Positions 5,511-49,473 of a stretch of DNA of 64,000 bases are shown in pieces (the stretch's first letter is position 1; each line of letters starts with the position of its first letter). A program made the position numbers and the translations under genes. The stretch spans positions 10,134 through 74,133 of the forward strand of contig CAJLFQ010000002.1 of the NCBI GenBank assembly GCA_905205975.1, read 5' to 3'. The notes below the pieces were generated by a model that was not told the DNA's origin, did no database searches, and was given only the letters and a program-made list of their open reading frames with translations. The stretch comes from an uncultured Eubacteriales bacterium (GTDB lineage: Bacteria; Bacillota; Clostridia; Oscillospirales; QAMX01).

Positions 5511-5530
5511 GTGAAGTGTGAGGATTTTGC

Positions 5531-5929: not shown

Positions 5930-5947
5930 GAAAGGAGAGACGAAACC

Positions 5948-10374: not shown

Positions 10375-11200
10375 AATGAAAGAACCGCTGATCCCGGCGA
10401 TCGGCGTTGTGACCGACATCCGCATCGACACGCCGGACGTCAAGACGTTCCGCGTCGTGACGCCGGACGGCAAAAAAGCGTTTGAGCATAAGCCCGGCCA
10501 GTGCGCCATGCTGTCGATTCCCGGCGTCGGCGAAGCGATGTTTTCCATCACCTCGTCGCCGACGAATGAAGCATTTATGGAGTTTTCCATCAAAAAGTGC
10601 GGCTGCGTGACCGAATGGCTCCATTCGATGGAGGTCGGCCAGCAGATTACGATCCGCGGGCCCTACGGCAACGGCTTCCCGGTCGATACAGCGTTCACCG
10701 GACACGACCTGCTGTTCATCGCCGGCGGCATCGGTCTTGCGCCGCTGCGCTCCGTCATCAACTACTGCCGCCACTACCGCGACCGTTACGGCAAGATCGA
10801 CATCGTCTACGGCTCCCGCAGCATGCAGGACCTCGTCGATTACCGTGAAATCGTCGAAGAGTGGACGAAGGATACCGGCGTCAGCGTCCATCTGACGATC
10901 GACCGCGAACAGCCGGAATGGGACGGCCATGTCGGATTCGTCCCGAATTACGTCAAAGAGCTGGCTTTCCCGACGGACAAAATTGCCATTCTCTGCGGCC
11001 CGCCGATCATGATCAAGTTTACGCTGGCCGGCTTGCAGGAGCTGGGCTTTGACAAAACGCAGGTGTATACGACGATGGAACTGCGCATGAAGTGCGGCAT
11101 CGGCAAATGCGGCCGGTGCAACATCGGCGCGAAGTACGTCTGCAAAGACGGTCCGGTTTTCCGCTGCGACCAGCTCGACGAACTGCCGAACGAATATTAA
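10367..11200 (+). CDS. FAD/NAD(P)H-binding ferredoxin-reductase-type subunit with C-terminal 2Fe-2S (AsrB/HydG/FlxA/PyrK-like)
   Basis: FNR-like fold (FEHKPGQCAML, FSITSSP, LLFIAGGIGLAPLRS). C-terminal CGIGKCGRCN cluster motif. Overlaps the upstream gene by 8 nt. gggagg RBS. Confidence 0.85.
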   Translation: MPEMKEPLIPAIGVVTDIRIDTPDVKTFRVVTPDGKKAFEHKPGQCAMLSIPGVGEAMFSITSSPTNEAFMEFSIKKCGCVTEWLHSMEVGQQITIRGPYGNGFPVDTAFTGHDLLFIAGGIGLAPLRSVINYCRHYRDRYGKIDIVYGSRSMQDLVDYREIVEEWTKDTGVSVHLTIDREQPEWDGHVGFVPNYVKELAFPTDKIAILCGPPIMIKFTLAGLQELGFDKTQVYTTMELRMKCGIGKCGRCNIGAKYVCKDGPVFRCDQLDELPNEY

Positions 11201-11327
11201 GGAGACCGCCGGACGGGCTTTTCGAAACGTCTGCGCGGCTCTCCCGAAAAACTTTTCTGTCCCTTCTGTCCCATGGATCCCAAGCACATCCAACCAATCC
11301 CACTCACACCACAAAAGGAGTGTATGC

Positions 11328-12005
11328 ATGATGGAAAACATGGTCAACGTCTTCCTGTTCGGGAAGCAGTATACGGTCCCGGGCGATCTGACGATTATGC
11401 GTGCCATGGAATATGCCGGCTATCAGCTGATTCGCGGCTGCGGCTGCCGGAACGGATTCTGCGGCGCCTGCGCGACCATCTACCGCATCAAAGGCGACCG
11501 GGAACTCAAAACGTGCCTCGCCTGTCAGACCAAGGTTGAAAACAACATGTATGTCGCGACCCTGCCGTTCTTCCCGCTGGTCAAACAGGTCTACGACATC
11601 AACAAAGTCAAACCCACCGAACAGATCATGATGCAGCTCTATCCGGAGATCTACGCCTGCGTTGGCTGCAACGCCTGCACGAAGAGCTGCACCCAGTCGC
11701 TGAACGTCATGCAGTACATCGCCTATGCCCAGCGCGGCGAATTTGACAAGTGCGCAGAAGAATCGTTCGACTGCGTGATGTGCGGCGTCTGTTCGTCCCG
11801 CTGCCCGGCCGGGATTTCGCATCCGCAGGTCGCCATGCTGGCGCGCCGCCTGAACGGCAAATACCTCGCCCCGAAGAGCGAACATCTGGAAGAACGCGTC
11901 AAGGAAATCAAAGACGGCACGTTCAACGACCTGATCGAAGCGCTGATGGGCAAACCGGTCGAAGAACTCAAAGAACTCTACAACAACCGCGAAATCGAAA
12001 AGTGA
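11328..12005 (+). CDS. frdB: Succinate dehydrogenase/fumarate reductase iron-sulfur subunit-like protein
   Basis: N-terminal 2Fe-2S motif CGCRNGFCGACATIY..C. Then CVGCNACTKSC and CVMCGVCSSRCPAG. aaggag RBS 7 nt upstream. Confidence 0.8.
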   Translation: MMENMVNVFLFGKQYTVPGDLTIMRAMEYAGYQLIRGCGCRNGFCGACATIYRIKGDRELKTCLACQTKVENNMYVATLPFFPLVKQVYDINKVKPTEQIMMQLYPEIYACVGCNACTKSCTQSLNVMQYIAYAQRGEFDKCAEESFDCVMCGVCSSRCPAGISHPQVAMLARRLNGKYLAPKSEHLEERVKEIKDGTFNDLIEALMGKPVEELKELYNNREIEK

Positions 12006-12018
12006 GGTGGCTCTGACC

Positions 12019-13614
12019 ATGTACGCGAACGAATTTCAGGAATCCCTCAAGGCGGTCGAAGCCGCCCGTCAAGCCAACATCGCCTATGAACCGGCGCGCA
12101 TGACCGCGCAGGAGAAAGACGATCTGCTGGCAGCCTATCACCCGGACTACAAGAAAAGCGAATTTTCAACGCTGAAAATCGGCCCGAACAAGGGCGAAAA
12201 TGTCCCGCATGAACTGTGCGATATGCTTCAGGCGCACAGCCGCATCTCCGCGGAAGACGTCGACCTCGAAGACATCCGCTATGACGTCGATGTGCTGATC
12301 ATCGGCGGCGGCGGCGCAGGCGCTTCTGCGGCTATTGAAGCCGACAACGCGGGCGCAAAAACCATGATCGTGACGAAGCTCCGCATCGGCGACGCCAACA
12401 CCATGATGGCAGAAGGCGGCATTCAGGCTGCCGACAAGCCGAACGACTCTCCGGCGATCCACTTCCTGGATGCCTTCGGCGGCGGTCATTTTGCGGCCAA
12501 ACGCGAACTGCTCGCCAAGCTCGTCTGCGATGCGCCGGAAGCCATTCAGTGGCTCAACGATCTGGGCGTCGAATTCGACAAAGCGCCGGACGGCACCATG
12601 ATCACCACCCACGGCGGCGGCACCTCCCGCAAGCGGATGCATGCCGCGAAAGACTACTCCGGCGCCGAAATCATGCGTACGCTCCGCGACGAAGTGCTGA
12701 ACCGCGGAATCCCGGTCGTTGATTTCACGTCGGCGGTCGAACTGATCCTCGATGAAAACGGCAGAGCCGCCGGAGCCGTCCTCATGAACATGGAGACGAA
12801 AGAGCTGATGGTTGCCCGCGCGAAAACCGTCATTTTGGCGACGGGCGGCGCAGGCCGGATGCATTATCAGGGCTTCCCGACCTCGAACCACTACGGCGCG
12901 ACGGCAGACGGTCTGGTGCTCGGCTACCGTGCAGGCGCAAAACTGCTGTATGCCGACACGCTGCAATACCATCCGACGGGCGCGGCCTTCCCGCAGCAGA
13001 TCTTTGGTGCGCTCGTCACCGAAAAAGTCCGCTCGCTCGGCGCGAAGCTCGTCAACCGCGACGGCAAAGTCTTCATGCACCCGCTGGAAACACGCGACGT
13101 TGCGGCGGCTTCGATCATCCGTGAATGCTCCGACCGCGATGAAGGCGTCGATACCGGCAGCGGCAAGGCCGTCTGGCTCGACACGCCGATGATTGAGGCC
13201 ATCGGCGGCGAGGGGACGATTGAACGCCGCATCCCGGCCATGATGCGTATGTTCGGCAGCTACGGCATCGACATCCGCAAAGAGCCGATCCTCGTCTACC
13301 CTACACTGCACTATCAGAACGGCGGTTTGGACATCCGCGTGGACGGCATGACGCCGAACGTGGAAAACCTGTATGTCGCGGGCGAAGCCGTCGGCGGCAT
13401 CCACGGCCGCAACCGCCTGATGGGCAACTCACTGCTGGACGTCATCGTCTTCGGGCGCAGCGCCGGTCAGCATGCCGCCGTGCAGGCGAGAACGGTCAGC
13501 AACGGTCGCCTGACGCTTGCCCACATCGCCGCGTTTGACGCGGAGCGGGCGGCGGCCGGCATCGAAACCGACCTCGTCTCGCCGAAACTCCTGCCGGATT
13601 ACCGCCGGAAATAA
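12019..13614 (+). CDS. frdA: Fumarate reductase/succinate dehydrogenase flavoprotein-like subunit (soluble type, non-covalent FAD predicted)
   Basis: DVLIIGGGGAGASAAIEA dinucleotide fold. Active-site-like motifs HPTG, VRSLGA, LHYQNGGL and HGRNRLMGNSL. The ATG at 12019 has an RBS (gaggtgg), whereas the track start at 12007 is GTG. There is a ~95-aa N-terminal extension. Confidence 0.85.
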   Translation: MYANEFQESLKAVEAARQANIAYEPARMTAQEKDDLLAAYHPDYKKSEFSTLKIGPNKGENVPHELCDMLQAHSRISAEDVDLEDIRYDVDVLIIGGGGAGASAAIEADNAGAKTMIVTKLRIGDANTMMAEGGIQAADKPNDSPAIHFLDAFGGGHFAAKRELLAKLVCDAPEAIQWLNDLGVEFDKAPDGTMITTHGGGTSRKRMHAAKDYSGAEIMRTLRDEVLNRGIPVVDFTSAVELILDENGRAAGAVLMNMETKELMVARAKTVILATGGAGRMHYQGFPTSNHYGATADGLVLGYRAGAKLLYADTLQYHPTGAAFPQQIFGALVTEKVRSLGAKLVNRDGKVFMHPLETRDVAAASIIRECSDRDEGVDTGSGKAVWLDTPMIEAIGGEGTIERRIPAMMRMFGSYGIDIRKEPILVYPTLHYQNGGLDIRVDGMTPNVENLYVAGEAVGGIHGRNRLMGNSLLDVIVFGRSAGQHAAVQARTVSNGRLTLAHIAAFDAERAAAGIETDLVSPKLLPDYRRK

Positions 13615-13635
13615 AACAGAAAGCCAGGGAATAAC

Positions 13636-13944
13636 ATGACAGATTTTCTTGAGGCCATGACCATCTTCTGCTTTGGTCTTTCGTGGCCGATCTCCATCCG
13701 CAAATCGCTCGTCTCCCGCACGGCAAAGGGCAAGAGCCTGTTCTTTGAAATCTTCCTCCTGATCGGCTACGCCTGCGGCATCGCCCGCAAGGTGATCCAG
13801 ACGGTAGAGGGCAGCAGCGGCTTCCTCTTCTATCTGAGCTTCTTCTTCTATGTGCTGAACTTCATCGAGATCTCCATCGACGTCATGCTGTACTTCCGGA
13901 ACAAAAAGCTGGACGAAGCGGCGGAAGCGGCACAGCTGGCATAA
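13636..13944 (+). CDS. Small 3-TM membrane protein (PQ-loop/SemiSWEET-like, tentative)
   Basis: 102 aa with three hydrophobic segments and a WPISIRK loop reminiscent of a PQ-loop. Begins 21 nt after frdA. Function not established. Confidence 0.5.
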   Translation: MTDFLEAMTIFCFGLSWPISIRKSLVSRTAKGKSLFFEIFLLIGYACGIARKVIQTVEGSSGFLFYLSFFFYVLNFIEISIDVMLYFRNKKLDEAAEAAQLA

Positions 13945-13992
13945 CCTGCAGTTTTTCCACAGTCCGGCGATCATCAATCAAAGGCGGTACCT

Positions 13993-14622
13993 ATGAAACA
14001 GGCAGAAGTATCCCGGGCGACCATCGGCCGGATCCCGACATATCTGAAATACCTGAAGAGCATCCGGCACACGGAGACCATTTCGGCAACGGCCCTCGCG
14101 CATGCGCTTGGGCTGGGCGAGGTGCAGGTGCGGAAGGATCTGAGCGCCGTCTCCGGCGCGGGGCGCCCGCGGGTCGGATACCATACGCGTCAGCTGATCC
14201 GTGCGTTTGAATCCTTCCTGAGCGGAGACGACAGCCTTGTCGTCATCGCCGGCGCGGGGAAGCTCGGCCGGGCGCTGCTCGATTACGGCGGGTTTGACGA
14301 ATACGGTCTGCACGTTGCAGCGGCGTTCGATATCGCCGTTCAAACGGCGGAACAAAGCAACACCGGCAAGCCGGTTTTCCCCATGCGGGAGCTGGCGGAT
14401 TTCTGCCGGACGCACGCGGTCCGCATCGGCGTCATCGCCGTCCCGGCGGAAGCGGCGCAGTCGGTCTGCGACCAGTTTCTGACCTGCGGGATTCAGGCGA
14501 TCTGGTGCTTTGCACCGTGTATGCTGCATGTGCCGGAAGGGTTCCCGGTGCAGTATGAAAACATGGCGCTGTCGCTGGCGCATCTGAACAAAAAAATCCA
14601 GTGCGCAGAGACGCCCAAATAG
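13993..14622 (+). CDS. rex: Redox-sensing transcriptional repressor Rex
   Basis: N-terminal winged-helix VSRATIGRIPTYLKYL. Rossmann VVIAGAGKLGRALL. 209 aa. Confidence 0.9.
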   Translation: MKQAEVSRATIGRIPTYLKYLKSIRHTETISATALAHALGLGEVQVRKDLSAVSGAGRPRVGYHTRQLIRAFESFLSGDDSLVVIAGAGKLGRALLDYGGFDEYGLHVAAAFDIAVQTAEQSNTGKPVFPMRELADFCRTHAVRIGVIAVPAEAAQSVCDQFLTCGIQAIWCFAPCMLHVPEGFPVQYENMALSLAHLNKKIQCAETPK

Positions 14623-14663
14623 AACGCGCAACCTGATTAGAAACCAGAAAGGACATCGATTTT

Positions 14664-14909
14664 ATGAAAGTAACCGTTTGTATCGGCTCTTCCTGCCATG
14701 TCAAAGGTTCGCACAGCGTGGTCAAACAGCTGCAGGAACTGATTCAGGAAAAAGGCCTTGAAGACAAAATTGAGCTTGCCGGCACGTTCTGCATGGGCAA
14801 ATGCCAGCTCGGCGTCTGCACAACCGTAGACGGCGAATTCTATTCCGTGACGCCCGAAACGACGAAAGCGTTTTTTGAAAACGACATCCTGCCGAAGCTT
14901 GATGCATAA
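14664..14909 (+). CDS. Thioredoxin-like [2Fe-2S] ferredoxin-type protein
   Basis: 81 aa with a CIGSSCHVKG...CMGKC Cys pattern. Sits immediately upstream of the hydrogenase. Confidence 0.7.
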   Translation: MKVTVCIGSSCHVKGSHSVVKQLQELIQEKGLEDKIELAGTFCMGKCQLGVCTTVDGEFYSVTPETTKAFFENDILPKLDA

Positions 14910-14945
14910 GAAACGTTCGCCAATTTCTGTTTTTGGAGGTTTACC

Positions 14946-16370
14946 ATGCGGAAATTCGATACGAAAGTACAATTACTGAAATACAAAGTCCTGCGGGAAG
15001 TCGCCCGTCAGGCATGGCAGGGAACGCTGACCGAAAACCTTCTGGACATTCCGAAGACGATCATCCCGGGCAACACGCCGACAATGCGCTGCTGCATCTA
15101 CAAGGAGCGGGCGATCATCGAGGAACGCGTCAAAGTCGCCATGGGCGGAGACAAGTCGAATCCGAACGTCATCGAGGTCATCGAAATCGCCTGCGACGAA
15201 TGCCCGATCGGCGGCTGCGAAGTGACCAACGCCTGCCGCGGCTGTCTGGCGCACCGCTGCGAAGACGCCTGTCGGTTCGGCGCCATCTCGTTTGACGATC
15301 AGCACGTCGCGCACATTGATAAGACCAAGTGCAAAAACTGCGGCGCCTGCTCGAAAGTCTGCCCGTATACGGCGATTGTCAGCCGGAAGCGCCCGTGCGA
15401 AAATGCGTGCAAGATCAAGGCCATCGAGATGAACGAAAACAAGACGGCCGGCATCGATAACAGCAAATGCATCGCCTGCGGCGCCTGCGTCTACCAGTGC
15501 CCGTTCGGCGCCATTATGGACAAATCGTTCATTTTGGACGTCATCGACATTCTCAAAAAGAGCGAAAACAACACGCAGTATAAAGTGTTTGCCGTGGTTG
15601 CGCCGGCGATTTCGAGCCAGTTTACCTATGCGAAGCTTGGTCAGGTCATCACCGGGCTGAAAGAACTTGGCTTCCACACCGTCGTCGAAGCGGCGCTCGG
15701 CGCCGATATGGTCGCCAATGCAGAGTCCAAGGAACTGGCTGAAAAGGGCTTTTTGACCAGTTCCTGCTGCCCGGCGTTTGTCAGCTACATCGAAAAATCC
15801 TTCCCGGAGCTGAAGCCGTTTGTTTCCCACAACCTGTCGCCGATGGCGACGATCGCAAAATACATCAAGGAGCATGAGGCACCCTGCAAGGTCGTTTTCA
15901 TCGGCCCCTGCACGGCGAAGAAAGCCGAAGCGCAGCGGGAGGAAGTCAAACCGTATGTCGATGCGGTCATGACGTTTGAAGAGCTTCAGGCGCTGTTCGA
16001 CAGCAAGGATATGGATATCACGGCGCTGCCGGAAAACCTGCTGGACAACGCGTCGTATTTCGGCCGGATCTTTGCCCGTTCCGGCGGGCTGAGCGATGCC
16101 GTGCGCGAAGGCCTGAAGGAAAACGGCATCGAAGATTTCGAGCTGAAGCCGTGCGCCTGCGATGGCATTGAAGCGTGCCGCATCGCGCTGCTGAAAAAAT
16201 CAAAGAATCTCCTGACCGAAAACTTCATCGAGGGGATGGCGTGTACCGGCGGCTGCATCGGCGGCGCCGGGTGCTTGACCCACGGCGAGAAAAACAAGGC
16301 GGACGTCGACCGCTATGGCAAAGAGGCGTTTGAAAAAACCATCTCCGACGCCATTTCTGCGCTGGAATAA
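14946..16370 (+). CDS. [FeFe] hydrogenase catalytic subunit (monomeric, multi-ferredoxin-domain type)
   Basis: H-cluster motifs TSCCPAFV, FIGPCTAKK and MACTGGCIGGAGC. Upstream ferredoxin motifs CKNCGACSKVCPY and CIACGACVYQCPFGA. Confidence 0.9.
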   Translation: MRKFDTKVQLLKYKVLREVARQAWQGTLTENLLDIPKTIIPGNTPTMRCCIYKERAIIEERVKVAMGGDKSNPNVIEVIEIACDECPIGGCEVTNACRGCLAHRCEDACRFGAISFDDQHVAHIDKTKCKNCGACSKVCPYTAIVSRKRPCENACKIKAIEMNENKTAGIDNSKCIACGACVYQCPFGAIMDKSFILDVIDILKKSENNTQYKVFAVVAPAISSQFTYAKLGQVITGLKELGFHTVVEAALGADMVANAESKELAEKGFLTSSCCPAFVSYIEKSFPELKPFVSHNLSPMATIAKYIKEHEAPCKVVFIGPCTAKKAEAQREEVKPYVDAVMTFEELQALFDSKDMDITALPENLLDNASYFGRIFARSGGLSDAVREGLKENGIEDFELKPCACDGIEACRIALLKKSKNLLTENFIEGMACTGGCIGGAGCLTHGEKNKADVDRYGKEAFEKTISDAISALE

Positions 16371-16480: not shown

Positions 16481-16535
16481 TGGCCGTGATTCTGCAGCTG
16501 CGGGGATGCTGGGTGGATATCGTTTGTGAGGTGAA

Positions 16536-16623
16536 CCTCGGTGGATACGCAAAGTTCCACCTCATCCGGTTCTCTGCTTTTCGGGGAAAAGCAGAGAACC
16601 ACCTTCCCCTCATAGGGGAAGGC
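16536..16623 (+). repeat. Nested-hairpin intergenic repeat, family A, variant 1
   Basis: cctcggtggatacgcaaagttccacctcatccgg + 15-bp hairpin ggttctctgcttttc/gaaaagcagagaacc + hairpin ccttcccct-cat-aggggaagg. Confidence 0.85.
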
Positions 16624-16708
16624 TTATTGCCTGCCGGCATGGCCGCTGGCTTTTCATCTGCGGGGTGTGTTCGCTTCGTTCGTAGGGAAGGCAAAGGGAA
16701 TGGAACAA

Positions 16709-16790
16709 GCCTTCCCCTGAGTAGGGGAAGGTGGCGAAAACGATTTTCCGCGAAAATCGCTTTCGCCGGATGCGGTCGAAGTTTCCCCGC
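16709..16790 (-). repeat. Nested-hairpin intergenic repeat, family A, variant 2 (inverted relative to 16536)
   Basis: gccttcccctgagtaggggaagg + ggcgaaaacgattttc/gaaaatcgctttcgcc hairpin + ggatgcggtcgaa. Confidence 0.85.
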
Positions 16791-16848
16791 GCGCCGCGGT
16801 ACAGACGAAGCGGCTTTTCGCGCTTTTGCACAAAAAACGACAGAGCTG

Positions 16849-18639: not shown

Positions 18640-18795
18640 TTCCCCGGCGGATTTGGCGGATTTGCCTTTTCCCCGGCGGATCCCCGCGCTTCCACCTCAT
18701 CCGGTTCTTTGTTTTTCCCCGAAAAGCAAAGAACCACCTTCCCCTCGTAGGGGAAGGCTTTGATTCGCCGCAGCGCTTTCCTTCGCTTGCAGTCC
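18640..18795 (+). repeat. Family A variant 1 repeat, extended ~150-nt form
   Basis: Core ttccacctcatccggttctttgtttttccccgaaaagcaaagaaccaccttcccctcgtaggggaaggc (18690-18758). The flanks match the inverted copy at about 37695-37850 (ggatccccg.., gcgaaggaaagcgct..). Confidence 0.8.
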
Positions 18796-36004: not shown

Positions 36005-37363
36005 ATGCTGAACAGCTTTGACATTCTCGAAACCATCAAAATGATCTCCGACGAGCATCTGGACATCCGCACCATCACGATGGGCATCAGCCTGTCGGAC
36101 TGTGCCGCGGAAAGCGTTAAACGCTGCGCGGAGAAGATTTACGACAAAATCACCCATCGGGCGGAACATCTGGTCGAAGTCGGAAACCGGATCGAAAAAG
36201 AATACGGCATTCCGGTCATCAACAAGCGCATTTCGGTCACGCCGATTGCGCTCGTCGCAGCAGCCTGCGCGGAGACGGACGACACGCCGCTGGCGGAAGC
36301 GCTCGACCGTGCGGCGCAGACCGTCGGCATCAACTTCATCGGCGGGTTTTCCGCGCTGGTGCACAAGGGCATGACGGAATCCGACCGGCGGCTGATTGAG
36401 TCGATCCCGTCGGCGCTGGCGGCGACGGAGCGGGTCTGCTCCTCGGTCAACGTCGCGACCACCCGTGCAGGCATCAATATGGATGCCGTTGCAAAAATGG
36501 GCGAAATTATGAAAGAAACCGCCTATCTGACACGCGAAAGTGATTCTTTCGGCTGCGCAAAGCTCGTCGTGTTTGCCAACAGCCCGGAGGATAACCCGTT
36601 CATGGCGGGCGCGTATCACGGCGTCGGCGAAGCGGAGTGCGCCATCAACGTCGGCGTTTCCGGGCCGGGCGTCGTTCGGGCGGCCATCGAACGCCACGGC
36701 GCGATGAACCTGACGGAGCTGGCGGACGTCATCAAGAAGACGGCGTTCAAAATCACGCGCATGGGTCAGCTGGTCGCCTATGAGGCCTCCCAGCGGCTGG
36801 GTGCGAACTTCGGCATTGTCGACCTGTCGCTGGCGCCGACGCCTGCGGTCGGCGATTCCGTCGCCCGGATTTTGGAGGCGATGGGGCTGGAAACGTGCGG
36901 ATGCCACGGGACGACGGCGTGTCTGGCCATGCTGAACGACGCCGTCAAGAAGGGCGGCGTCATGGCGTCGTCTCATGTCGGCGGGCTGTCCGGGGCATTC
37001 ATCCCGGTCAGCGAGGACATGGGCATGGTTGAAGCGGCGCAGAAAGGCGTGCTGACGATCGATAAGCTCGAAGCGATGACGGCGGTCTGCTCGGTTGGGC
37101 TGGATATGATCGCCGTGCCGGGCGATACGCCGGCGGAAGTGCTTTCGGCGATCATCGCGGATGAAATCTCCATCGGCGTCGTCAACAATAAGACGACGGC
37201 GGTGCGTCTGATTCCGGTGTACGGCAAGACGGTCGGCGACAGCATCTCGTTCGGCGGTCTGTGGGGCGAAGCGCCCATCATGCCGGTGCATCGGGAATCG
37301 CCGGCGGTGTTCATTCACCGCGGCGGCCGCATCCCGGCGCCGATCCACAGCCAGCGGAACTGA
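36005..37363 (+). CDS. UPF0210/DUF711 (PFL-like) family protein
   Basis: [25 protein letters not shown]-terminus typical of the family. GGAGGG RBS before ATG 36005. The last codons (HSQRN*) lie inside the inverted repeat. Confidence 0.85.
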
Positions 37364-37374
37364 TTTGACATGCG

Positions 37375-37411
37375 GAATCCCCGGACTGCCAAAGGCAATC
37401 CGGGGATTTTT
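37375..37411 (+). terminator. Terminator of the UPF0210 gene (inside the left repeat arm)
   Basis: gaatccccggactgcc-aaa-ggcaatccggggatt followed by tttt. Confidence 0.8.
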
Positions 37412-37507
37412 GCGTGTGGTTGGGGGAGGCTGCGGGTGTGCGTTGGGGGTAGGCGCTGCGGGTATGTGTTGGCGGATAGGCTGCGGGTATGTGGCGGCGG
37501 ATAGGCT
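37412..37507 (+). repeat. Family B ~25-nt degenerate tandem repeat (about 4 units)
   Basis: gcgtgtggttgggggaggctgcgggtgt / gcgttgggggtaggcgctgcgggtatgt / gttggcggataggctgcgggtatgt / ggcggcggataggct. Confidence 0.75.
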
Positions 37508-37509
37508 AT

Positions 37510-37582
37510 GTTCGACCTCATCCGGCGAAAGCGATTTTCGGTGAAAATCGTTTTCGCCACCTTCCCCTGCTCAGGGGAAGGC
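37510..37582 (+). repeat. Family A variant 2 repeat
   Basis: gttcgacctcatccggcgaaagcgattttcggtgaaaatcgttttcgccaccttcccctgctcaggggaaggc. Confidence 0.85.
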
Positions 37583-37694
37583 GTTGGTAGTTTCCCGCTG
37601 GCTCTCCTGTGTGCGAAGTGTGAACATCGGGTACGGAATGAGCCAGCGGGCTTTCCAAAGGAACGCCAGCTGGCGTTGGCGGTTCCCCAATGTT

Positions 37695-37850
37695 CCCGCA
37701 GCGGACGAAGGAAAGCGCTTCGGCGAATTGGAGCCTTCCCCTACGAGGGGAAGGTGGTTCTTTGCTTTTCCCCGAAAAGCAAAGAACCGGATGAGGTGGA
37801 AGATCGGGGATCCGCCGGGGAAAAGGCGAATCTGCCAAATCAGCTGTCCC
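37695..37850 (-). repeat. Family A variant 1 repeat, extended form (inverted)
   Basis: Core gccttcccctacgaggggaaggtggttctttgcttttccccgaaaagcaaagaaccggatgaggtggaag (37733-37802). The flanks match 18640-18795 in reverse complement. Confidence 0.8.
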
Positions 37851-37911
37851 CTTGTATGCCGCAGGCATAACCGCGTCCCTGCGGGGGGAAGGCTCCGGTG
37901 TTTGATTCGGC

Positions 37912-37940
37912 TTGCTTTTTCCGCTCAAATATGGTATCAT
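37912..37940 (+). promoter_or_regulatory. Inward-facing promoter in the left repeat arm (drives the VOC gene)
   Basis: TTGCTT, 17-nt spacer, TATCAT, with TGg upstream. The same sequence is present inverted at 39898-39926. Confidence 0.6.
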
Positions 37941-38010
37941 ATGCACATATACGGAATCTATTTCCCGTCCCAAAATCAACCATTTCAAACGATTACGGAG
38001 GAATCATCTG

Positions 38011-38418
38011 ATGTCTAACGAACGCATTTCCGGCTGCGGGTTCCACCATCTGGCACTCCGCGTCAGCAACTTTGACAAGAGCTTCCGTTTTTATACGGAA
38101 ACGCTCGGCTTCCGTCTGCGCACCGCATGGGGCGAAGGCGACAAACGCGTCGCGCTGCTTGATTTCGGCGACGGCGGCTGTCTGGAACTGTTCGCAGGCG
38201 CCAACGGCGAACAGCCGGAAGGCTGCTTCTGGCACGCCGCGCTGAAAACAACCGACGTTGACGCCGCCTATGCCGCCGCCCGTGCCGCCGGCGCCGCCGA
38301 TTACCGCGCCCCGTCCGACGTTCTGCTCGGCGAAGGCGACCATCCCAGAATCGCCGCCCGCATTGCATTCGTCCGCGGGTTCGACGGCGAACTGCTCGAA
38401 TTCTTCTGCGAGAAGTAA
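38011..38418 (+). CDS. VOC-family (glyoxalase/bleomycin-resistance/dioxygenase fold) protein
   Basis: GFHHLALRVSNFDKSFRFYTETLGF N-terminal VOC motif. 135 aa from ATG 38011, with a ggagga RBS. Confidence 0.8.
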   Translation: MSNERISGCGFHHLALRVSNFDKSFRFYTETLGFRLRTAWGEGDKRVALLDFGDGGCLELFAGANGEQPEGCFWHAALKTTDVDAAYAAARAAGAADYRAPSDVLLGEGDHPRIAARIAFVRGFDGELLEFFCEK

Positions 38419-38441
38419 TCTGCTCTCACCGCATACAGCCC

Positions 38442-38478
38442 AAAAGGCCGGACAGGCATATCGCCTGTCCGGCCTTTT
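38442..38478. terminator. Bidirectional terminator between the two convergent cassette genes
   Basis: aaaaggccggacaggc-atat-cgcctgtccggcctttt. Confidence 0.85.
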
Positions 38479-38514
38479 CTCATGCAGCAAAACGGATGCC
38501 GCAGTCGACTTCGG

Positions 38515-39807
38515 CTACTGATTCTGCCGGATGATCTGATCGCCCGCCGTCTGAATGTTCGACAGCAGGGTGTTTTTCATGCCGCCCGGCCGTGCGACGA
38601 AAAAGACGTATGGTTCTTCGCCCCGGTTGATGATGTTGGTAAACGCCGCATGATTGAGATACCCCTCGACGGCCACCGTCCGGCGGCAGGCAGAAACCAG
38701 ATTGGAAACGGTGAGATTTTGGATGCTGTCGGGCAGATTGCGGCCATAGGCACCGTCCGGTTCGCCGAGCAGCAGCGCAATCCCGGTTGTGCAGTCCGCC
38801 GGTGAGTTGTCCACCACGTTGTCGATGACGACGTTCCGAATCTGCGCCTCTGCGGGCAGCAGGCGGATCAGACAGCAGACGCCGCTCTGGCAGCGGCCGA
38901 TGACGTTGCGGATGATGATGTTGTAGATGTCGCGTTCCCGCCGGGTCCAGTCGTTGTGCATGACATGCGTCGTGCGGAGGCTTCCGCCCGGCAGCGCGTG
39001 CGGGCTGGCGATGGCGGTCAGCGCGATCAGATCGTCGCCCGTACCGCCGGTGATGTCGGTGACGACGATGTCATGACAGCCGTTGCGCAGGTCGATGCCG
39101 TCCTGATTTTCCGTATTTTGCAGGAGCCCGTCGATTTCGCGTTCCATTTTGGCGTCAAAATCGATTTTTTCGACGCGGCCGTAGGCGCACGCTTCGAGGG
39201 ATATGCCCCAGCCGTGCGATTCGATGATGGTTAGATTTTCGATGGAAAAATGCTCTGCGTTGGCAAACAGAACGCCGATGCCCCGCCAGTCGCCGTAGTG
39301 GGATTCGTTCGGGTTGTTGGCATCGGTGCCGTAGGAATGGTCGTGGCAGTCCCAGAAGTCGAGATTGCCGGACTTGCGGCGTTCCTCCGGAATCCAGTCT
39401 GCCAGCCGGCAAAGATCTTCCGGCTTTTTCGGGCATGGACAGGCCAGAATTTTCGTTCCATCGCCAGTGGCGCGCGGGTGATCGGCGCCCATCAGGACGC
39501 AGCGGCCGACGCCTTTGAGGTGGACGTTCTGGATTTTTGCCGGGTCCGCAATGCCCAACCCGCAGTTGGCCGTGCGGAAGAAGTTGTCCCGGCAGCGGTC
39601 GGAGAGCTTGATCATGCAGTTTTCGAGGATCACGGTCGTGTCGGACGGGATGCAGACCGCCCGGTCCAGCAGCCAGTATGTCCGATCGGGATCCACATCG
39701 GACTGCCGGGGCGGGATGATGACAATGCCGTCCGCTGTGCGGTGCTGAATGGCGCGCTCAAGGGTATCGCTGTCTGTCGCTGCGTAGAAATCATTGGCAT
39801 AGACCAT
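38515..39807 (-). CDS. Right-handed parallel beta-helix (pectin-lyase fold, GH28-like) protein
   Basis: Repetitive beta-helix-like pattern (NVVIDNVVDN, NIIIRNVIG, HDIVVTDITGGTGDDLIAL, NLTIIESHGWGISLE) and no signal peptide. ATG 39807 lies 8 nt after AGGAG (the track GTG at 39816 overlaps the RBS). Confidence 0.7.
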   Translation of the reverse strand: MVYANDFYAATDSDTLERAIQHRTADGIVIIPPRQSDVDPDRTYWLLDRAVCIPSDTTVILENCMIKLSDRCRDNFFRTANCGLGIADPAKIQNVHLKGVGRCVLMGADHPRATGDGTKILACPCPKKPEDLCRLADWIPEERRKSGNLDFWDCHDHSYGTDANNPNESHYGDWRGIGVLFANAEHFSIENLTIIESHGWGISLEACAYGRVEKIDFDAKMEREIDGLLQNTENQDGIDLRNGCHDIVVTDITGGTGDDLIALTAIASPHALPGGSLRTTHVMHNDWTRRERDIYNIIIRNVIGRCQSGVCCLIRLLPAEAQIRNVVIDNVVDNSPADCTTGIALLLGEPDGAYGRNLPDSIQNLTVSNLVSACRRTVAVEGYLNHAAFTNIINRGEEPYVFFVARPGGMKNTLLSNIQTAGDQIIRQNQ

Positions 39808-39897
39808 GGAATACACTCCTTCGTTTTGTCGTGTTCGACTGAACCGCCGGGAAACAGCCGGCTGGAAAATCGGAAACCATCGGGGTCCATTGAGGCT

Positions 39898-39926
39898 ATG
39901 ATACCATATTCGAGCGGAAAAAGCAA
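39898..39926 (-). promoter_or_regulatory. Inward-facing promoter in the right repeat arm (drives the beta-helix gene)
   Basis: The minus strand reads TTGCTT, 17-nt spacer, TATCAT. Confidence 0.6.
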
Positions 39927-40200
39927 GCCGAACGCATTGGATATTGAATCAGCCAGCAGGCCTTTGCCCGCCTTCACCCGCAGAAGAACCATCGGGGAAC
40001 CGCCAGAGCCTTCCCTTCGCCCGCAGCGGGAGCCAGCGGGGGAGCCGCCAGAGCCTTCCCCTGAGAAGGGGAAGGCGGCGAAAACGATTTTCGCTGAAAA
40101 TTGTTTTCGCCGGATGAGATCGAACACAGCGTATCCGCCGACATATACCCGCAGCGCCTCCCCCAACGCACGCCCGCAGCCTGCCTCCAACCACACGCAA

Positions 40201-40235
40201 GAATCCCCGGATTGCCTTTGGCAGTCCGGGGATTC
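40201..40235 (-). terminator. Terminator of the metallophosphoesterase gene (inside the right repeat arm)
   Basis: Same hairpin as 37375-37411, in reverse complement. Confidence 0.75.
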
Positions 40236-40246
40236 CGCATTTCAAA

Positions 40247-41374
40247 TCAGTTCTGCTGGCTGTGGAGCGATGCCGGATCCGGGCAGGCGCGCGCGGTCAC
40301 GCGGCCGTTCTCAGCGGTCAGCACGCCGCCGACGTAGGTTTCGCCGCCGTCATGGCGGAAGGCAGGAATCGACAGCACCGCCGTTGGAAAGTTGGCGTCG
40401 CATCTGTCCGGCGCATGCGGGGGAACCTCATAAACCGTGTGCATATGCCCGGCAAGCAGCAGCTGGATGTTCATCCGGTTCAAAAGGCTCGTCCACGTTT
40501 CGTAGATGTCATCCGCCGGGTTGAACGGCGCGGGCATTTTTTCGACGAACGGCATATGGCAGAAGGCGATTCGGTAAAGCACGCCGGGCGCATCGTATTC
40601 CTGTTCCGCCCGGGCGAGCAGCGATTCCAAAAACTGCGTTTCCCGCCGGCGGAAGGCGCCGCAGTCGATGACGCCGCCGTATTCGACGTGGCTGTCCGCT
40701 TTGTCTTCGCCGCAGTCGAGGACAAGCCCCCACAGCGGACCCTGCTGGAAGGTGTAGAACGTTTCCCGGCGTCCGCCGCGGCATACCGTCGGGATATAAG
40801 CGGGCAGCACGGTCGCCGCTGCGCCGCGCATATCGTGGTTCCCGCGGGCGTTGATGACCGGGCGTTCGCCGTGTACGGCGCCGGCAGACAGGCGGAACGC
40901 CGTATCGAACTGATCCGTGGAATCGCTGGAGCTGTTGAGGTCGCCGTTCAGAAGCAGGATGTCGCAGCCGCCGGACGCTTCGAATGTCTGCAGCGCCGAC
41001 TCGACGCGGCCGTGCGTATCCGCAAACTGGAACAGGCGGAAGGAATCGCCGGACAGCGGGGTAAACCGGTAGGTTTTCCGGACAGTTTCAACACCGACCG
41101 GACGGTTGGAAAGCATTTCCTCATACGCGGCGAACACGACCGTGTATGCGCCGGCTTCAGAGAGCGCCGCGCCGGGGACCGGAATTTTGTGGACGCGCCC
41201 ATACTGGAGCAGGCCGCATTCCTCATCGGTGAAGCGTTCGCCGGCGATTTCAATCCAGCCGATGCCCTTGCGCGCCGTGAGGAAAATGATCTGGTAGTCA
41301 TGCCCGACGGCAAAGACAGAGGGGTCAAAGCGCAGGTCGCCGGCCGCTTCCGGCGTGGTGTGAGCTTCTTGCAT
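40247..41374 (-). CDS. Metallophosphoesterase (calcineurin-like/purple-acid-phosphatase-like)
   Basis: FADTHG, LLLNGDL, ARGNHD and AGHMH motifs. Start at MQEAHTT (41374). The last codons (HSQQN*) lie inside the inverted repeat. Confidence 0.8.
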   Translation of the reverse strand: MQEAHTTPEAAGDLRFDPSVFAVGHDYQIIFLTARKGIGWIEIAGERFTDEECGLLQYGRVHKIPVPGAALSEAGAYTVVFAAYEEMLSNRPVGVETVRKTYRFTPLSGDSFRLFQFADTHGRVESALQTFEASGGCDILLLNGDLNSSSDSTDQFDTAFRLSAGAVHGERPVINARGNHDMRGAAATVLPAYIPTVCRGGRRETFYTFQQGPLWGLVLDCGEDKADSHVEYGGVIDCGAFRRRETQFLESLLARAEQEYDAPGVLYRIAFCHMPFVEKMPAPFNPADDIYETWTSLLNRMNIQLLLAGHMHTVYEVPPHAPDRCDANFPTAVLSIPAFRHDGGETYVGGVLTAENGRVTARACPDPASLHSQQN

Positions 41375-41498: not shown

Positions 41499-41554
41499 GT
41501 AAACATAGAAACGGATGCAGTTTCTGTATCCGACCATTGAAAGGGAGGCATAAC

Positions 41555-42310
41555 ATGAACAATTTTGATTTCGAAGCGGACTTTGCTGCGGCTGCCGCAG
41601 GCGTTGCGGGGACGGTGCTGGTGCTTTGGCTGATTGCGCTGGCGGCCGGCATTCTGATGATCATCGCGCAGTGGCGGATTTTCAGCAAAGCGGGCGAACC
41701 CGGCTGGGCTTCGCTGATCCCCATCTACAACTTATACGTCCTCTATAAAATCACATGGGGCAGCGGCATTCGCTTCCTGCTCCTGCTGATCCCGCTGTAC
41801 AACATCATCCTCGCCATCCAGACGAATATCCGGCTTGCCCGCGCCTTCGGCAAGGACGACGGGTTTGCCGTCGGGCTGATCTTTCTGCCCAGTATTTTCA
41901 TGCTGATCCTCGGCTTCGGCGGCGCGCAGTACTGCGGCGTGCCGGGCGTTTATCAGCAGCCCTACGGACAGCCGTACGGTCAGCCGTACGGACAGCCGCA
42001 GCAGCCCTACGGACAGCCGCAGCAGCCCTACGGACAGCCGCAGCAGCCCTACGGACAGCCGCAGCAGCCCAACGCCCAGCAGTGGACGTATAACGTCCAG
42101 CAGCAGCCGCAGCAGCAGACATACGCACAGCCGCAGCAGCAGACATACGCACAGCCGCAGCAGCAGACATACACACAGCCGCAGCAGCAGCCGTCCGGCC
42201 AGCCGCAGCAGCAGCCGCAGCAGCCGGCGTTCTGCCCGAACTGCGGTCAGGCGCTCGACCCGAATGTGAAATTCTGCCCGGGCTGCGGACAGCCGACCGG
42301 CAAGGCGTAA
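41555..42310 (+). CDS. DUF5684-like membrane protein with Q/P/Y-rich repeat region and C-terminal zinc-ribbon
   Basis: TM region with IFSKAGEPGWASLIPIYNLYVLYKI, then QPYG / QPQQPYG / QPQQQTYA repeats, then CPNCGQ..CPGCGQ. gggagg RBS before ATG 41555. Confidence 0.8.
   Translation: MNNFDFEADFAAAAAGVAGTVLVLWLIALAAGILMIIAQWRIFSKAGEPGWASLIPIYNLYVLYKITWGSGIRFLLLLIPLYNIILAIQTNIRLARAFGKDDGFAVGLIFLPSIFMLILGFGGAQYCGVPGVYQQPYGQPYGQPYGQPQQPYGQPQQPYGQPQQPYGQPQQPNAQQWTYNVQQQPQQQTYAQPQQQTYAQPQQQTYTQPQQQPSGQPQQQPQQPAFCPNCGQALDPNVKFCPGCGQPTGKA
41957..42226 (+). repeat. In-frame coding tandem repeats (12-nt x3, 21-nt x3.5, 24-nt x3)
   Basis: cagccgtacgg(a/t) units. cagccgcagcagccctacgga at 41993, 42014 and 42035. 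cagccgcagcagcagacatacgca at 42104, 42128 and 42152. Confidence 0.9.
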
Positions 42311-43338: not shown

Positions 43339-45460
43339 TTACCGCGCGGTGAGGCGGAGGCACTCGCGCAGGCCGAGTGCTTTGCTGCGAGCATCCGGCT
43401 GATGGCCGCCGATATGGAAGAAGAGGCCGCCGTCGGCTTCCGTCCGCCGCCCATCCGCGAGTACGGCTTCCGTCCAATATTGCTCTGCATGGAGCGTGAC
43501 GGTTTTGGCTTCGCCCGGCGCAAGTTCGACCGGACAGAGCGCACAGAGCTGGCAGTTCGGCGTTCTCGTGCGGGAATCCCGGAACGACGCATACAGCTGC
43601 ACTTTTTCCACACCGCGCATACCGCCCGTGTTGCGCACGGTGACGGTGACGTCATAGCCGTCTACCGTCTCCGACAGGGAGGCGTTTTCATATGCGGACG
43701 ACGTATATGACAGGCCGAAGCCGAACGGATAGAGCGGGTCATGCGTCAGATAGCGGTATGTTCTGCCGGTCATGGCGTAGTCGGTGAAAGCGGGCAGTGC
43801 TTCGTCACAGTGGTAAACGGTGACGGGCAGACGGCCGCTCGGCGAGAATTGCCCGGCGATCAGCCCGGCGACGGCCAGTCCGCCGACGGCGCCGGGGTAC
43901 CACGCGTGGATCAGGGCGTGTGCCCGCGTGCGGATCGATTCGCCGGGGTCGATGGCGCTGCCGCCCATCAGCACGACGACGACGTCGGCGCAGGCGTCCA
44001 TCACAGCGTCCGCCAGCGCCAGCTGCGCGTCCGGCAGACCGACGGAAACGCGGTCGCCGTTGTCAAAGCACGCGTTTCGCTGACCGTTTTCCTCGCCCTC
44101 GACGGTGCAGTCAAGCCCGAGGCACAAGACGACGGTATCGGCATGTTCGGCATACGTGACGGCCTCGCTGATCATATTTTTGAACCCGTCGCAGTCGTTT
44201 TTGCGCTGCCGCCAGATGTCGCAGCCGATGGCGGACCGGACGTTTTCCGCGCCGAAAACCTGGCGCAGTCCGTCGGAAACGGTGATGTATTCCGATGATT
44301 TCCCGTTGTAGTTGCCCTCCAGCGCAATGCGCGACATGGCGTTTGGGCCGATGACGGCCAGACGGCGCGGTTTTTCCGGGTCGAGCGGCAGGAAACCGTC
44401 GTTTTTCAAAAGCACAAGGCTCTCCTGCGCTGCGGACAGATTGAGCGCACGGTGTTCCGGGCATTCGATTTTTTCAAACGGGATATCGGCATACGGGCGT
44501 TCCGCTTCAAATTCGCCGAGCAGCACGCGGATCGTATAGAGCCGGACGGCTGCTTCCGTGAGGTCTTCCTCCGTGATCAGATCGTGTTCGTAGGCGTCGA
44601 GGAGATGCGCATACGCCTCCCCGCAGTTCAGATGGCAGCCCATTTTCAGGGCTTTGGCACATGCCGCTTCGAGCGAATCCGTATAATGGTGTCCGGCGAA
44701 GATATCTTTGATGGCGCCGCAGTCCGACGTAAAGTAGCCGTCAAACTGCCACTGTGAAAAGAGAATCTCCTGCATCAGCCGCTTGCTGGCGCAGCAGGGT
44801 TCGCCGTTGGTGCGGTTGTATGCGCCCATGACGCCGGCGACACCGGCTTTGACGGCGTGTTCGAATGCGGGCAGATACGTTTCCCAGAGGTCATGCGCGC
44901 TGACTTCGGCGTTGAAGCTGTGGCGGAGCGGTTCCGGCCCGGAGTGTACGGCGAAGTGCTTGGCGCAGGCGGCCGATTTCAGAAAGGCGCCGTCGCCTTG
45001 CAGCCCCTGAATGTACCGGACGCCCAGCACAGCCGTCAGGTACGGGTCTTCGCCGAACGTTTCCTGTCCGCGCCCCCAGCGCGGGTCGCGGAAGATGTTG
45101 ATGTTCGGCGTCCAGAATGTCAGGCCCTTGTAGATGTCATAGTCGCCTTTTGCCTGCGAGCTGTTGTATTTGGCGCGCGCTTCCGTGGAAACGGCGTCGG
45201 CGACGGCCTGAACCCGATCCGGGTCAAATGTGGCGGCCAGCGCGATGGCATGGGGGAAAACCGTCGCCATGCCGGAGCGGGCAAGCCCGTGAGACGCCTC
45301 GTTCCACCAGTTGTATTCGCGGATGCCGAGGCGTTCGATGGCGGGCGCGTTGTAGAGCAGCTGAGACGCTTTTTCCTCAACGGTCATCTGTGCGACCAGC
45401 GCAGCCGCTTTCTGCGCGGCGCGTGCATAATCCCGCGTGCTGTTTTGTCTGTCGTTCATG
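43339..45460 (-). CDS. Glycoside hydrolase family 3 (beta-glucosidase/beta-xylosidase type)
   Basis: WNEASHG, RDPRWGRGQETFGEDP, KHFAVHSGPE, GAYNRTNG and SDCGAI motifs, with a C-terminal Fn3-like domain. aaaggag RBS before ATG 45460. The track start at 45879 is unsupported. Confidence 0.9.
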
Positions 45461-49206: not shown

Positions 49207-49270
49207 AAAAAAACCTCCTGAAACAGGATTTTGAAACATGTGGCAGCGCGCGGATGCAGGGGGTGGGGTA

Positions 49271-49360
49271 CCTCGGTGGATACGCAAAGTTCCACCTCAT
49301 CCGGCGAAAGCAATTTTCACGGAAAATTGTTTTCGCCACCTTCCCCTGCATAGGGGAAGG
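49271..49360 (+). repeat. Family A variant 2 repeat
   Basis: ctcggtggatacgcaaagttccacctcatccggcgaaagcaattttcacggaaaattgttttcgccaccttcccctgcataggggaaggc. Confidence 0.85.
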
Positions 49361-49473
49361 CTTTGGCGCTTGTCGGATGTGTCCGATGCGCACAAAGGCG
49401 ATGTGCCTTTGTGCGGTCATGAAATCGGCGGTTTCAAAAAACCGTCCTGTTTTTTGCACAGGACGGTTTTTGA

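Follow-up and report, generated by a model that had tools for sequence, protein, structure and literature searches.

Inverted copies of an intergenic spacer bound a two-gene inversion polymorphism in an uncultured Eubacteriales bacterium

The subject of this report is a two-gene segment in an uncultured Eubacteriales bacterium of the class Clostridia from the human gut (assembly GCA_905205975.1), which lies on a 64,000-nucleotide (nt) stretch of contig CAJLFQ010000002.1 (positions 10,134 to 74,133, forward strand), hereafter the window. The segment contains a VOC/glyoxalase-fold gene and a beta-helix (BH) gene, and it sits between a UPF0210 gene and a metallophosphoesterase (MPE) gene, from each of which it is separated by one arm of a long imperfect inverted repeat. 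The locus is likely to be a chromosomal inversion polymorphism that arose from an inverted segmental duplication, in which homology between the duplicated spacer arms drives the inversion. The polymorphism is observed at the population level, and active switching is not part of the result.

Organization of the Locus

In the window, the genes and arms are arranged in the order UPF0210 (plus strand), left arm, VOC (plus), BH (minus), right arm, MPE (minus). The features of this region are given below, where L and P numbers designate the contigs and proteins used for comparison and aa stands for amino acids.

36005-37363, plus strand: UPF0210 / DUF711 gene (U; Pfam PF05167, E 4.5e-196)
About 37335-37363, plus strand: last ~9 codons of UPF0210, ending APIHSQRN and stop; outer end of the left arm; tail kept in L042, L065 and L080
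37368-37417 (core 37374-37408), plus strand: terminator-like hairpin T of UPF0210, with a T-run after it; -34.6 kcal/mol, z -7.1; related hairpin in L065
37906-37941, plus strand: promoter block P, left copy, now before VOC; 35/36 identical to 39897-39932
37942-38010, plus strand: VOC leader, probably a relic of the old MPE tail plus the MPE-VOC spacer and ribosome-binding site
38011-38418, plus strand: VOC / glyoxalase-fold gene, 135 aa (Pfam PF00903, E 6e-15)
38442-38478, both strands: bidirectional terminator hairpin common to the convergent VOC and BH genes; perfect 16-bp stem; -32.3 (plus) and -35.8 (minus) kcal/mol
38515-39807, minus strand: BH gene, 430 aa, beta-helix / GH28-like protein; homologues at 57-64% identity, many with PF00295
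39808-39896, minus strand: native BH leader, still joined to the right promoter block P'
39897-39932, minus strand: promoter block P', right copy, before BH; P-GCCTC...-BH contiguity as in L080, L091, L065 and L073
39933-39970, minus strand: segment c, native spacer just upstream of P; missing from the left arm of the window
40195-40240, minus strand: terminator hairpin T', copy of T, now ending MPE; -32.8 kcal/mol, z -6.4; 39-nt exact match to T
40247-40276, minus strand: last ~9 codons and stop of MPE, ending ASLHSQQN; copy of the UPF0210 tail
40247-41374, minus strand: MPE gene, 375 aa (Pfam PF00149)

The locus had previously been described in a model's reading of the letters and open reading frames (ORFs) alone, here termed the sequence-only reading. 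Its assignment of the two inner genes stands for VOC, which matches PF00903. The BH protein of the window has no Pfam match at E <= 0.01, and its GH28-like character comes from homologues that carry PF00295.

When 37300-37960 was compared with 39880-40310 by blastn, 37319-37618 aligned with the reverse complement of 40291-40015 (243/304 identities, 80%, E 3e-68), with one extra 25-nt unit in the left arm. The repeat search returned 108 nt at 87% identity (37319-37426 and 40184-40291) and 142 nt at 83% (37455-37596 and 40039-40180), and the arms re-align at 37672-37711 and 39971-40010 with 75% identity. Together with the 36-nt P block, this confirms that the long imperfect inverted repeat described around the two genes is real, at its described place, and far beyond chance. 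The start of the arm had been set at 37344, which requires correction, as the repeat already covers the last nine or so codons of each flanking gene and starts near 37335 and 40276.

Each arm contains a strong hairpin with a T-run, 25-nt units of a repeat termed family B, and a copy of a hairpin-pair repeat termed family A (variant 2). The left arm is longer, chiefly through a family A variant 1 copy at 37706-37844, no counterpart of which occurs in the right arm. The arms are 370-600 nt in length and diverged, and the longest exact inverted match between them in the window is 39 nt, at the terminators (T within 37368-37417 against 40240-40202).

The right arm also contains a 22-nt direct repeat (39994-40015 and 40039-40060) with 45-nt spacing. 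One 45-nt unit is missing in L069, L077, L078, L095 and L096, and this is a small indel polymorphism.

Orientation Variants

Contigs of the same species were found by exact-protein look-up, and their HemN-UPF0210 flank is 99.2-100% identical to the window at the nucleotide level. Thirteen of them (L001/L090, L060, L069, L088, L089, L093, L097-L101, L108, and L109) have the form of the window, termed type W. Five contigs from five samples (L095, L096, L077, L078, and L079) have the flipped form, termed type F. In L095 (62 kb, assembled with SPAdes) and L096 (74 kb, MEGAHIT k141), whose HemN-UPF0210 flank is 99.2-99.5% identical to that of the window, the order is UPF0210, left arm, BH (plus), VOC (minus), right arm, MPE, and positions 7761-9823 of L095 correspond to 39968-37906 of the window in reverse, with 97.7% identity. 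The order is MPE-arm-P-VOC-BH in the shorter contigs L077, L078 and L079, which come from three other samples and came to light through overlong VOC ORF calls that cross the arm. It had been proposed from the letters that the segment is invertible or recombinogenic through its arms, and these opposite orientations with the arms in place bear this out. A conserved order free of orientation variants, which had been named as evidence to the contrary, is not what the contigs contain. Misassembly of the F contigs is unlikely, because the identical repeats span only 36-66 nt, the assemblies used larger k, and the form occurs in five samples.

Other species also differ from the window in orientation. 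The nearest ones, L009 and L042 (UPF0210 94% identical in aa), share synteny with the window between LepA and the Na/H exchanger and read UPF0210 (plus), BH (plus), VOC (minus), MPE (minus), so that the segment is inverted relative to the window, and they have no arms. In the sister lineage L065/L073 the opposite orientation is seen for BH, again without arms. A metagenome scan with BH gave only five loci, one of which was informative. BH homologues at 66-75% identity were considered for polarity as well; they lie in unrelated contexts and were of no use.

A further haplotype, type S, has the order UPF0210, BH, a SpaA-domain protein (967-1005 aa), a pilin (488 aa), and a VOC gene 84-85% identical to that of the window. 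This VOC gene is convergent with a 368-aa MPE that ends in PDPV and stop. Type S is found in L080-L087, L091, L092 and L094 of the same species and in L073 of the sister lineage. In addition, L095 (7008-7760), L096 and one S-type contig (L094) have, on the UPF0210 side, a low-GC insert of about 750 nt that is flanked by two direct copies of P and is absent from the window. Within the insert lie a GNAT acetyltransferase gene (PF00583, E 1.8e-16) and, in truncated form, an ORF similar to the N-terminal part of a phage tail protein.

Origin of the Arms

The source of the arms can be traced through relatives that lack them. In the sister lineage, UPF0210 and BH are 98-99% and 94-95% identical in aa to the window, respectively. 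The two genes lie there on the same strand, separated by a 190-nt gap in which the UPF0210 stop and a related terminator hairpin are followed by about 30 nt, then by GGCTTGCTTTTCCGGAACGGATATGGTATCATAGCC, and then directly by the BH leader. On the L065/L073 contigs compared, there is no second copy of this spacer and there are no family A or B repeats. S-type genomes have a 142-nt UPF0210-BH gap with c-like sequence and with P joined to the BH leader. Because these spacers exist without arms, the combination of UPF0210 tail, T and P is recognized as the native UPF0210-BH spacer. By this comparison the right arm is an inverted copy of that spacer, placed in the 3' end of MPE. Of the two copies in the window, it is the right-arm one that remains joined to the native BH leader.

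An insertion that duplicated its flanks had been among the options of the sequence-only reading. The duplication is upheld, though it concerns one flank only (the UPF0210-BH spacer), and insertion of a cassette is not, since the genes are already at the locus in relatives. An empty site with UPF0210 directly next to MPE, which had been suggested as a check in relatives, was not found; L016 and L017 have UPF0210 directly before the DUF5684 gene, without BH, VOC and MPE.

The end of the MPE gene is chimeric. The MPE of the window reads CCGGATCC and then, across the junction, GGCATCGCTCCACAGCCAGCAGAACTGA, and UPF0210 ends in ATCCCGGCGCCGATCCACAGCCAGCGGAACTGA, with GGCGCCGATCCACAGCCAGCGGAACTGA at the matching position. 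MPE homologues end instead in PNPEHLHRIDRAPRA and stop (P0122, L042, and L009) or in PDPV and stop (P0242 and others, and the 368-aa variants of the same species). The L042 MPE ends with AATCCGGAGCAC and, further on, RIDRAPRA and stop, and the window MPE follows its homologues up to CCGGATCC. The S-type MPE parts from the window MPE exactly after GGATCC, which is the outer end of the right arm, and has the PDPV end. The junction falls at a short motif common to both genes, ATCC(C)GG. Such microhomology suggests a replication template switch or microhomology-mediated repair.

The VOC leader may preserve what the copy displaced. In L042 and L009, VOC follows MPE in an operon with a gap of about 60 nt. 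The VOC leader of the window is 69 nt in length, compared to 71 nt for the L042 MPE tail and spacer after ATCCGG. Its last 23 nt, next to the ribosome-binding site, are homologous to the MPE-VOC spacer of L042 and L009 (p 0.001-0.002), a local alignment that supports homology in that part only. Over its first 42 nt, an in-register comparison with the L042 MPE tail gives 20/42 matches (p about 0.008). No homology was found between the VOC leader and the region downstream of the S-type MPE (p 0.47). The spacer copy thus probably entered the MPE 3' end without loss of target sequence, by a template switch or repair event guided by microhomology. In the outer arm parts, L069 and the window are 92-93% identical between orthologous arms and 80-82% between paralogous arms. 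The duplication therefore predates the present diversity of the species, since orthologous arms are closer than paralogous arms.

The proposed history has three steps. Comparison with relatives shows the native arrangement to be UPF0210, T, c, P and BH in this order, with VOC and MPE downstream; in the outgroups L009 and L042, VOC follows MPE in an opposite-strand operon. In the window lineage, family B and A repeats settled between T and c. In the second step, in which the structure is directly visible and the mechanism is inferred, an inverted copy of the whole spacer would have been placed in the 3' end of the convergent MPE gene, with one limit about 28 nt on the coding side of the UPF0210 stop codon and the other at the final base of the -10 box. 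MPE would thereby have gained a UPF0210-derived tail and a terminator, VOC would have been severed from MPE and supplied with a copy of P, and the old MPE tail would have been turned into the VOC leader. In the third step, the outcome of which is seen in the contigs, exchange between the near-identical inverted P blocks would have flipped the BH-VOC segment.

Exchange Point and Promoter Block

In types W and F alike, the interior of the left arm (segments a and b) stays with UPF0210 and the interior of the right arm (a' and c') stays with MPE. Only the sequence beyond the P block differs, which is either the VOC leader or the BH leader. Because the arms stay with their flanks and the difference is confined to the sequence after P, the exchange point is placed at the P block. 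Exchange at the 39-nt identical terminators was considered and rejected, as the arm interiors never swap sides. The near-identical inverted blocks extend over 36 nt in the window. In the flipped strains they reach 66 nt, 50 nt of which match without interruption. Uninterrupted identity in the window covers 39 nt at T and 21 + 14 nt at P; in L095 the corresponding figures are 54 and 50 nt.

The two P copies also have clade-specific substitutions in common. Both copies read CGCGCGGATAT in the L069/L108-L111 clade and CGCTC[A/G]AATAT in the window clade. Between L095 and L096, the G/A states of the P copies are swapped, so that corresponding copies differ. From these patterns, concerted evolution is confined to the P block, and the outer arm parts have not been homogenised.

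The P block reads TTCGGCTTGCTTTTTCCGCTC(A/G)AATATGGTATCATA in both arms. In the left copy, a -35 element TTGCTT (37912-37917) is followed by a 17-nt spacer and an extended -10 element TGgTATCAT that ends at 37940. A TTGCTT-17-TATCAT promoter had been proposed at this place; the shared block holds at 35/36 positions, and the consensus is less clear-cut. A sigma-70 consensus scan did not accept the block as a promoter, as TTGCTT matches TTGACA at only 3/6 positions. P is accordingly called a promoter by inference, because the consensus scanner rejects its -35 element. The c-P-BH contiguity occurs on the UPF0210 side in L095, L096 and L094, and L091 has c-like sequence before P. A terminator scan missed all three evident hairpins of the locus, hence RNA folding was used instead. 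Both arm hairpins and the central hairpin fold strongly (z -6.4 to -8.7), and the shared bidirectional terminator that had been predicted at 38442-38478 folds strongly on both strands, as expected.

Whichever way the segment lies, one copy of P immediately precedes BH and another precedes VOC, and UPF0210 and MPE each end at a copy of T, as far as anatomy goes. Since an outward terminator and an inward promoter come with each arm, all four genes would receive the same predicted signals either way. The inversion is therefore probably neutral and would not act as a regulatory switch.

Family A and B Repeats

The arms contain two families of hairpin repeats, the copies of which at the locus are as follows.

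37429-37504, plus strand: three 25-nt family B units (GCTGCGGGTRTGTGTTGGCGGATAG), left arm, from the repeat search; similar units at 1957-2059
37495-37587, plus strand: family A variant 2 hairpin-pair repeat, left arm; 86% identical to 49274-49366; seven-copy alignment; -47.7 kcal/mol
37706-37844, minus strand: family A variant 1 copy with flanks, left arm; 139 nt, 91% complementary to 18647-18785
40046-40141, minus strand: family A variant 2 copy, right arm, from the alignment of copies
40127-40185, minus strand: family B units, right arm, one 25-nt unit fewer than in the left arm; gap visible in the arm alignment

Across the window there are seven family A copies, at 16536-16625 (plus), 16707-16802 (minus), 18671-18760 (plus), 37495-37587 (plus), 37732-37820 (minus), 40046-40141 (minus) and 49274-49366 (plus), and family B units at 1957-2059, 16497-16535, 37429-37504 and 40127-40185. 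The regions in which the repeat families of the arms recur are 1935-2088, 16497-16802, 18647-18785 and 49239-49398. Family A is about 85 nt in length and reads CGGYGGAT..TTCSACCTCATCCGG, followed by a 15-16-bp hairpin and then ACCTTCCCCT..AGGGGAAGGC. Its first hairpin exists in two sequence variants, in which the changes are fully compensating (folds of -43.6 and -47.7 kcal/mol). Family A is often preceded by 25-nt family B units (GCTGCGGG..GGCGGATAG), which start directly after the terminator T-run. Plus-minus pairs of family A at 16536-16802 and 37495-37820 resemble miniature inverted-repeat transposable elements (MITEs) of about 300 nt, and with many short intergenic copies and conserved hairpins the A and B units would fit the MITE or REP-like kind.

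Rfam gave no match in the whole window at the gathering threshold, and for 37300-40300 at E <= 1 it gave only chance microRNA and small RNA matches to hairpins. Neither the 51 loci compared from other species nor the sister lineage L065/L073 contains the repeats. They are the only dispersed part of the arms, and they are lineage-specific.

Evaluation of the Model and Its Alternatives

Several points weigh against an inversion driven by homology between the arms, or limit what it explains. With 21 + 14 exact bases, the P blocks of the window offer little identity for recombination of the RecA type. The terminator, where exchange is not seen, has the longest exact run (39 nt), and repeat-flanked inversion in S. 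aureus can be recA-independent (PMC6778178). The flipped strains also carry the 750-nt insert and a third copy of P on the UPF0210 side. Because this insert lies between direct P copies, types W and F differ by at least two events, namely the inversion and an insertion or a deletion between direct repeats. The F contigs form a single clade in the cassette tree, with mosaic site patterns, so that one flip is enough for the sampled contigs. The model does not explain the S haplotype with its SpaA and pilin genes, divergent VOC, and MPE ending in PDPV. The origin of the VOC leader from the old MPE tail has modest, suggestive support (p about 0.01). Finally, promoter and terminator function are predictions, and expression neutrality and the template-switch origin are proposals. 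Two or more independent flips had been entertained when L069 seemed to be an independent window-type lineage; this was dropped when more contigs gave one F clade and mosaic signals.

An alternative is a programmed inverton, in which the P repeats would be the sites of an invertase encoded elsewhere and the segment would flip at high frequency in clonal populations, giving phase variation. Short near-identical inverted repeats do lie exactly at the exchange point, both orientations are natural, and single-nucleotide polymorphisms (SNPs) are shuffled between the P copies. Moreover, gut bacteria have invertons that contain genes or lie inside them (PMC10028968, PMC11892184), and some repeat-flanked inversions are recA-independent (PMC6778178). 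However, the 46 ORFs of the 64-kb window contain no recombinase, integrase or transposase Pfam domain, although a distant enzyme acting in trans is conceivable. The sequence-only reading, which saw no recombinase, transposase or target-site duplication, agrees with this result, and precomputed Pfam annotations of +/-10 kb in same-species L001 likewise include no recombinase or transposase. Nothing in the window points to a dedicated recombinase. Each gene has the same promoter copy before it either way, so no ON/OFF or coding change would be expected. Orientation tracks clades, as F is one clade and the other 13 contigs are window-like, and among the contigs retrieved no sample yielded both orientations. 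The repeats are also a segmental duplication that carries 300 nt of sequence irrelevant to such a system. On balance, a programmed inverton is improbable.

Two further explanations are considered still less probable. One is that a mobile terminator-promoter module, or a MITE-like composite of families A and B, inserted at both ends and mobilised the cassette. Family A/B repeats are indeed dispersed (seven family A copies in 64 kb) and lineage-specific, and the plus-minus pairs of family A are like MITEs with long terminal inverted repeats. Correia-type elements of other bacteria carry promoters and terminators. Against this, T and the promoter block occur at no other locus of the window, and both are found in the UPF0210-BH spacer of relatives without A/B repeats, and the module, which had been one of the options drawn from the letters, fails on these grounds. 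The arm also holds about 28 nt of UPF0210 coding sequence, which is not expected of a mobile module. Neither a transposase nor a target-site duplication is present. The outer ends fall within two different genes and share only the ATCC(C)GG microhomology, and species that lack arms have BH, VOC and MPE at this locus too. Such a module is very unlikely. The other explanation, that the inverted duplication is an old and inert relic and that the orientation variants are assembly artefacts at repeats, is given an equally small chance. Short-read Logan contigs do break inside the arms, the outer arm parts have diverged to 80-87% without homogenisation, and W-type contigs far outnumber F-type contigs. 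On the other hand, the F form comes from five samples and three assemblers, including the 62-kb and 74-kb contigs, and the MEGAHIT k of 141 exceeds the 36-66-nt identical repeat. The F contigs agree in structure and, at 97.7% identity to the window, have SNPs of their own. The opposite orientation recurs in sister species, and the P block has undergone concerted evolution.

A more far-reaching possibility is that the family A/B repeats, which always begin just behind terminator T-runs, are a new terminator-targeting mobile repeat that seeds inverted duplications and local rearrangements, which would make this locus, with its four structural haplotypes within one species, a hotspot, or that the P block is a trans-acting invertase site with frequent flipping within populations. 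This is regarded as improbable. Inversion through the duplicated spacer arms remains the preferred reading.

Other Genes in the Window

A DUF5684 / zinc-ribbon membrane protein gene (41537-42310, plus strand) contains a long Q/P/Y-rich region that is encoded by 21- and 24-nt tandem repeats (41945-42223). Its length varies among strains (208-244 aa called), and its identity is 81-96% compared to 97-100% for neighbouring genes. Two strain-specific insertions that adjoin this gene in other contigs are not in the window. One, in L069 (4396-6951), encodes a UvrD-type helicase with a topoisomerase zinc ribbon, and the other, in L101 (1-955), encodes a large serine recombinase (Resolvase + Recombinase + Zn_ribbon_recom + DUF4368).

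A GH3 glycosidase gene (43339-45459) is missing at this position in L009 and L042, where Amidohydro_2 directly precedes the Na/H exchanger region. At 4704-16370 the window contains a large Fe-S / flavoprotein cluster with CCG-domain, Fer4, Pyr_redox, DHODB-like electron-transfer subunit, FAD_binding_2, Rex-like regulator and [FeFe]-hydrogenase large subunit genes. It adjoins malate/lactate dehydrogenase and fumarase genes and is unrelated to the inversion locus.

Implications

On this reading, the locus is an ordinary repeat-mediated inversion polymorphism and involves no new mobile element, genetic switch or mechanism. It illustrates how a small inverted duplication of a spacer rewires four genes, in that a C-terminal tail and a terminator are newly acquired, an operon is split, and a promoter is copied to a second gene. 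The inverted duplication then serves as a substrate for inversion. A caution follows for gut metagenomes, as this probably neutral strain polymorphism would be flagged by inverton finders that look for inverted repeats and for orientations that vary among samples.

In addition, ORF callers give over-long genes through the arms. Overlong ORFs through the GC-rich arms are called in the window at 39630-40196 (minus) and 37912-38418 (plus). Public collections hold spurious 'VOC' proteins of 243-257 aa (P0265 and P0268, from L077 1235-2008 and L078 2455-3186), which are annotation artefacts. Such overlong VOC ORFs through the arm are useful markers of the flipped junction.

Comparison with Known Systems

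The closest parallels are repeat-mediated inversions between insertion sequence (IS) copies, prophages, rrn operons or hsdMS loci, as in S. aureus (PMC6778178) and E. coli O157:H7 (PMC8743559). In these systems as well, inverted copies bound the segment, both orientations are found among strains, exchange takes place inside the repeats, and no mobility encoded by an element is needed. The known repeats are at least 1 kb in length, whereas here only 36-66 nt are near-identical within diverged arms of 370-600 nt. Moreover, the inverted segment here spans just 2 kb, its repeats derive from an intergenic spacer and not from IS, prophage or rRNA copies, and no phenotype is expected, as the signals are symmetric.

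Invertons such as fimS, the Bacteroides capsule promoters and the hsdS shufflons (PMC10028968, PMC11892184, PMC7672463) share with this locus the inverted repeats around invertible gut-bacterial DNA and the involvement of promoters. As invertons are defined in PMC10028968 and PMC11892184, a dedicated invertase flips a promoter or part of a coding sequence relative to fixed genes, whereas here the promoters are in the repeats and the genes flip. The outcome here is symmetric, no invertase is encoded nearby (64 kb), and orientation is clade-specific rather than mixed.

The duplication itself resembles inversions with flanking inverted duplications that arise by template switching or microhomology-mediated repair (PMC7954356, PMC3161906), in that there is an inverted copy of nearby sequence, a microhomology (ATCC(C)GG) and an apparently retained target. 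Those events have been described mostly in eukaryotes and in stressed E. coli, whereas here the mechanism would be read from one junction in diverged sequences. The family A and B units, for their part, are like REP / BIME, Correia and RUP / BOX repeats and MITEs in being short, hairpin-forming, intergenic, multicopy, adjacent to terminators, and lineage-specific. They differ in having no Rfam match, and at this locus they are passengers of the arms and not the cause of the repeat ends.

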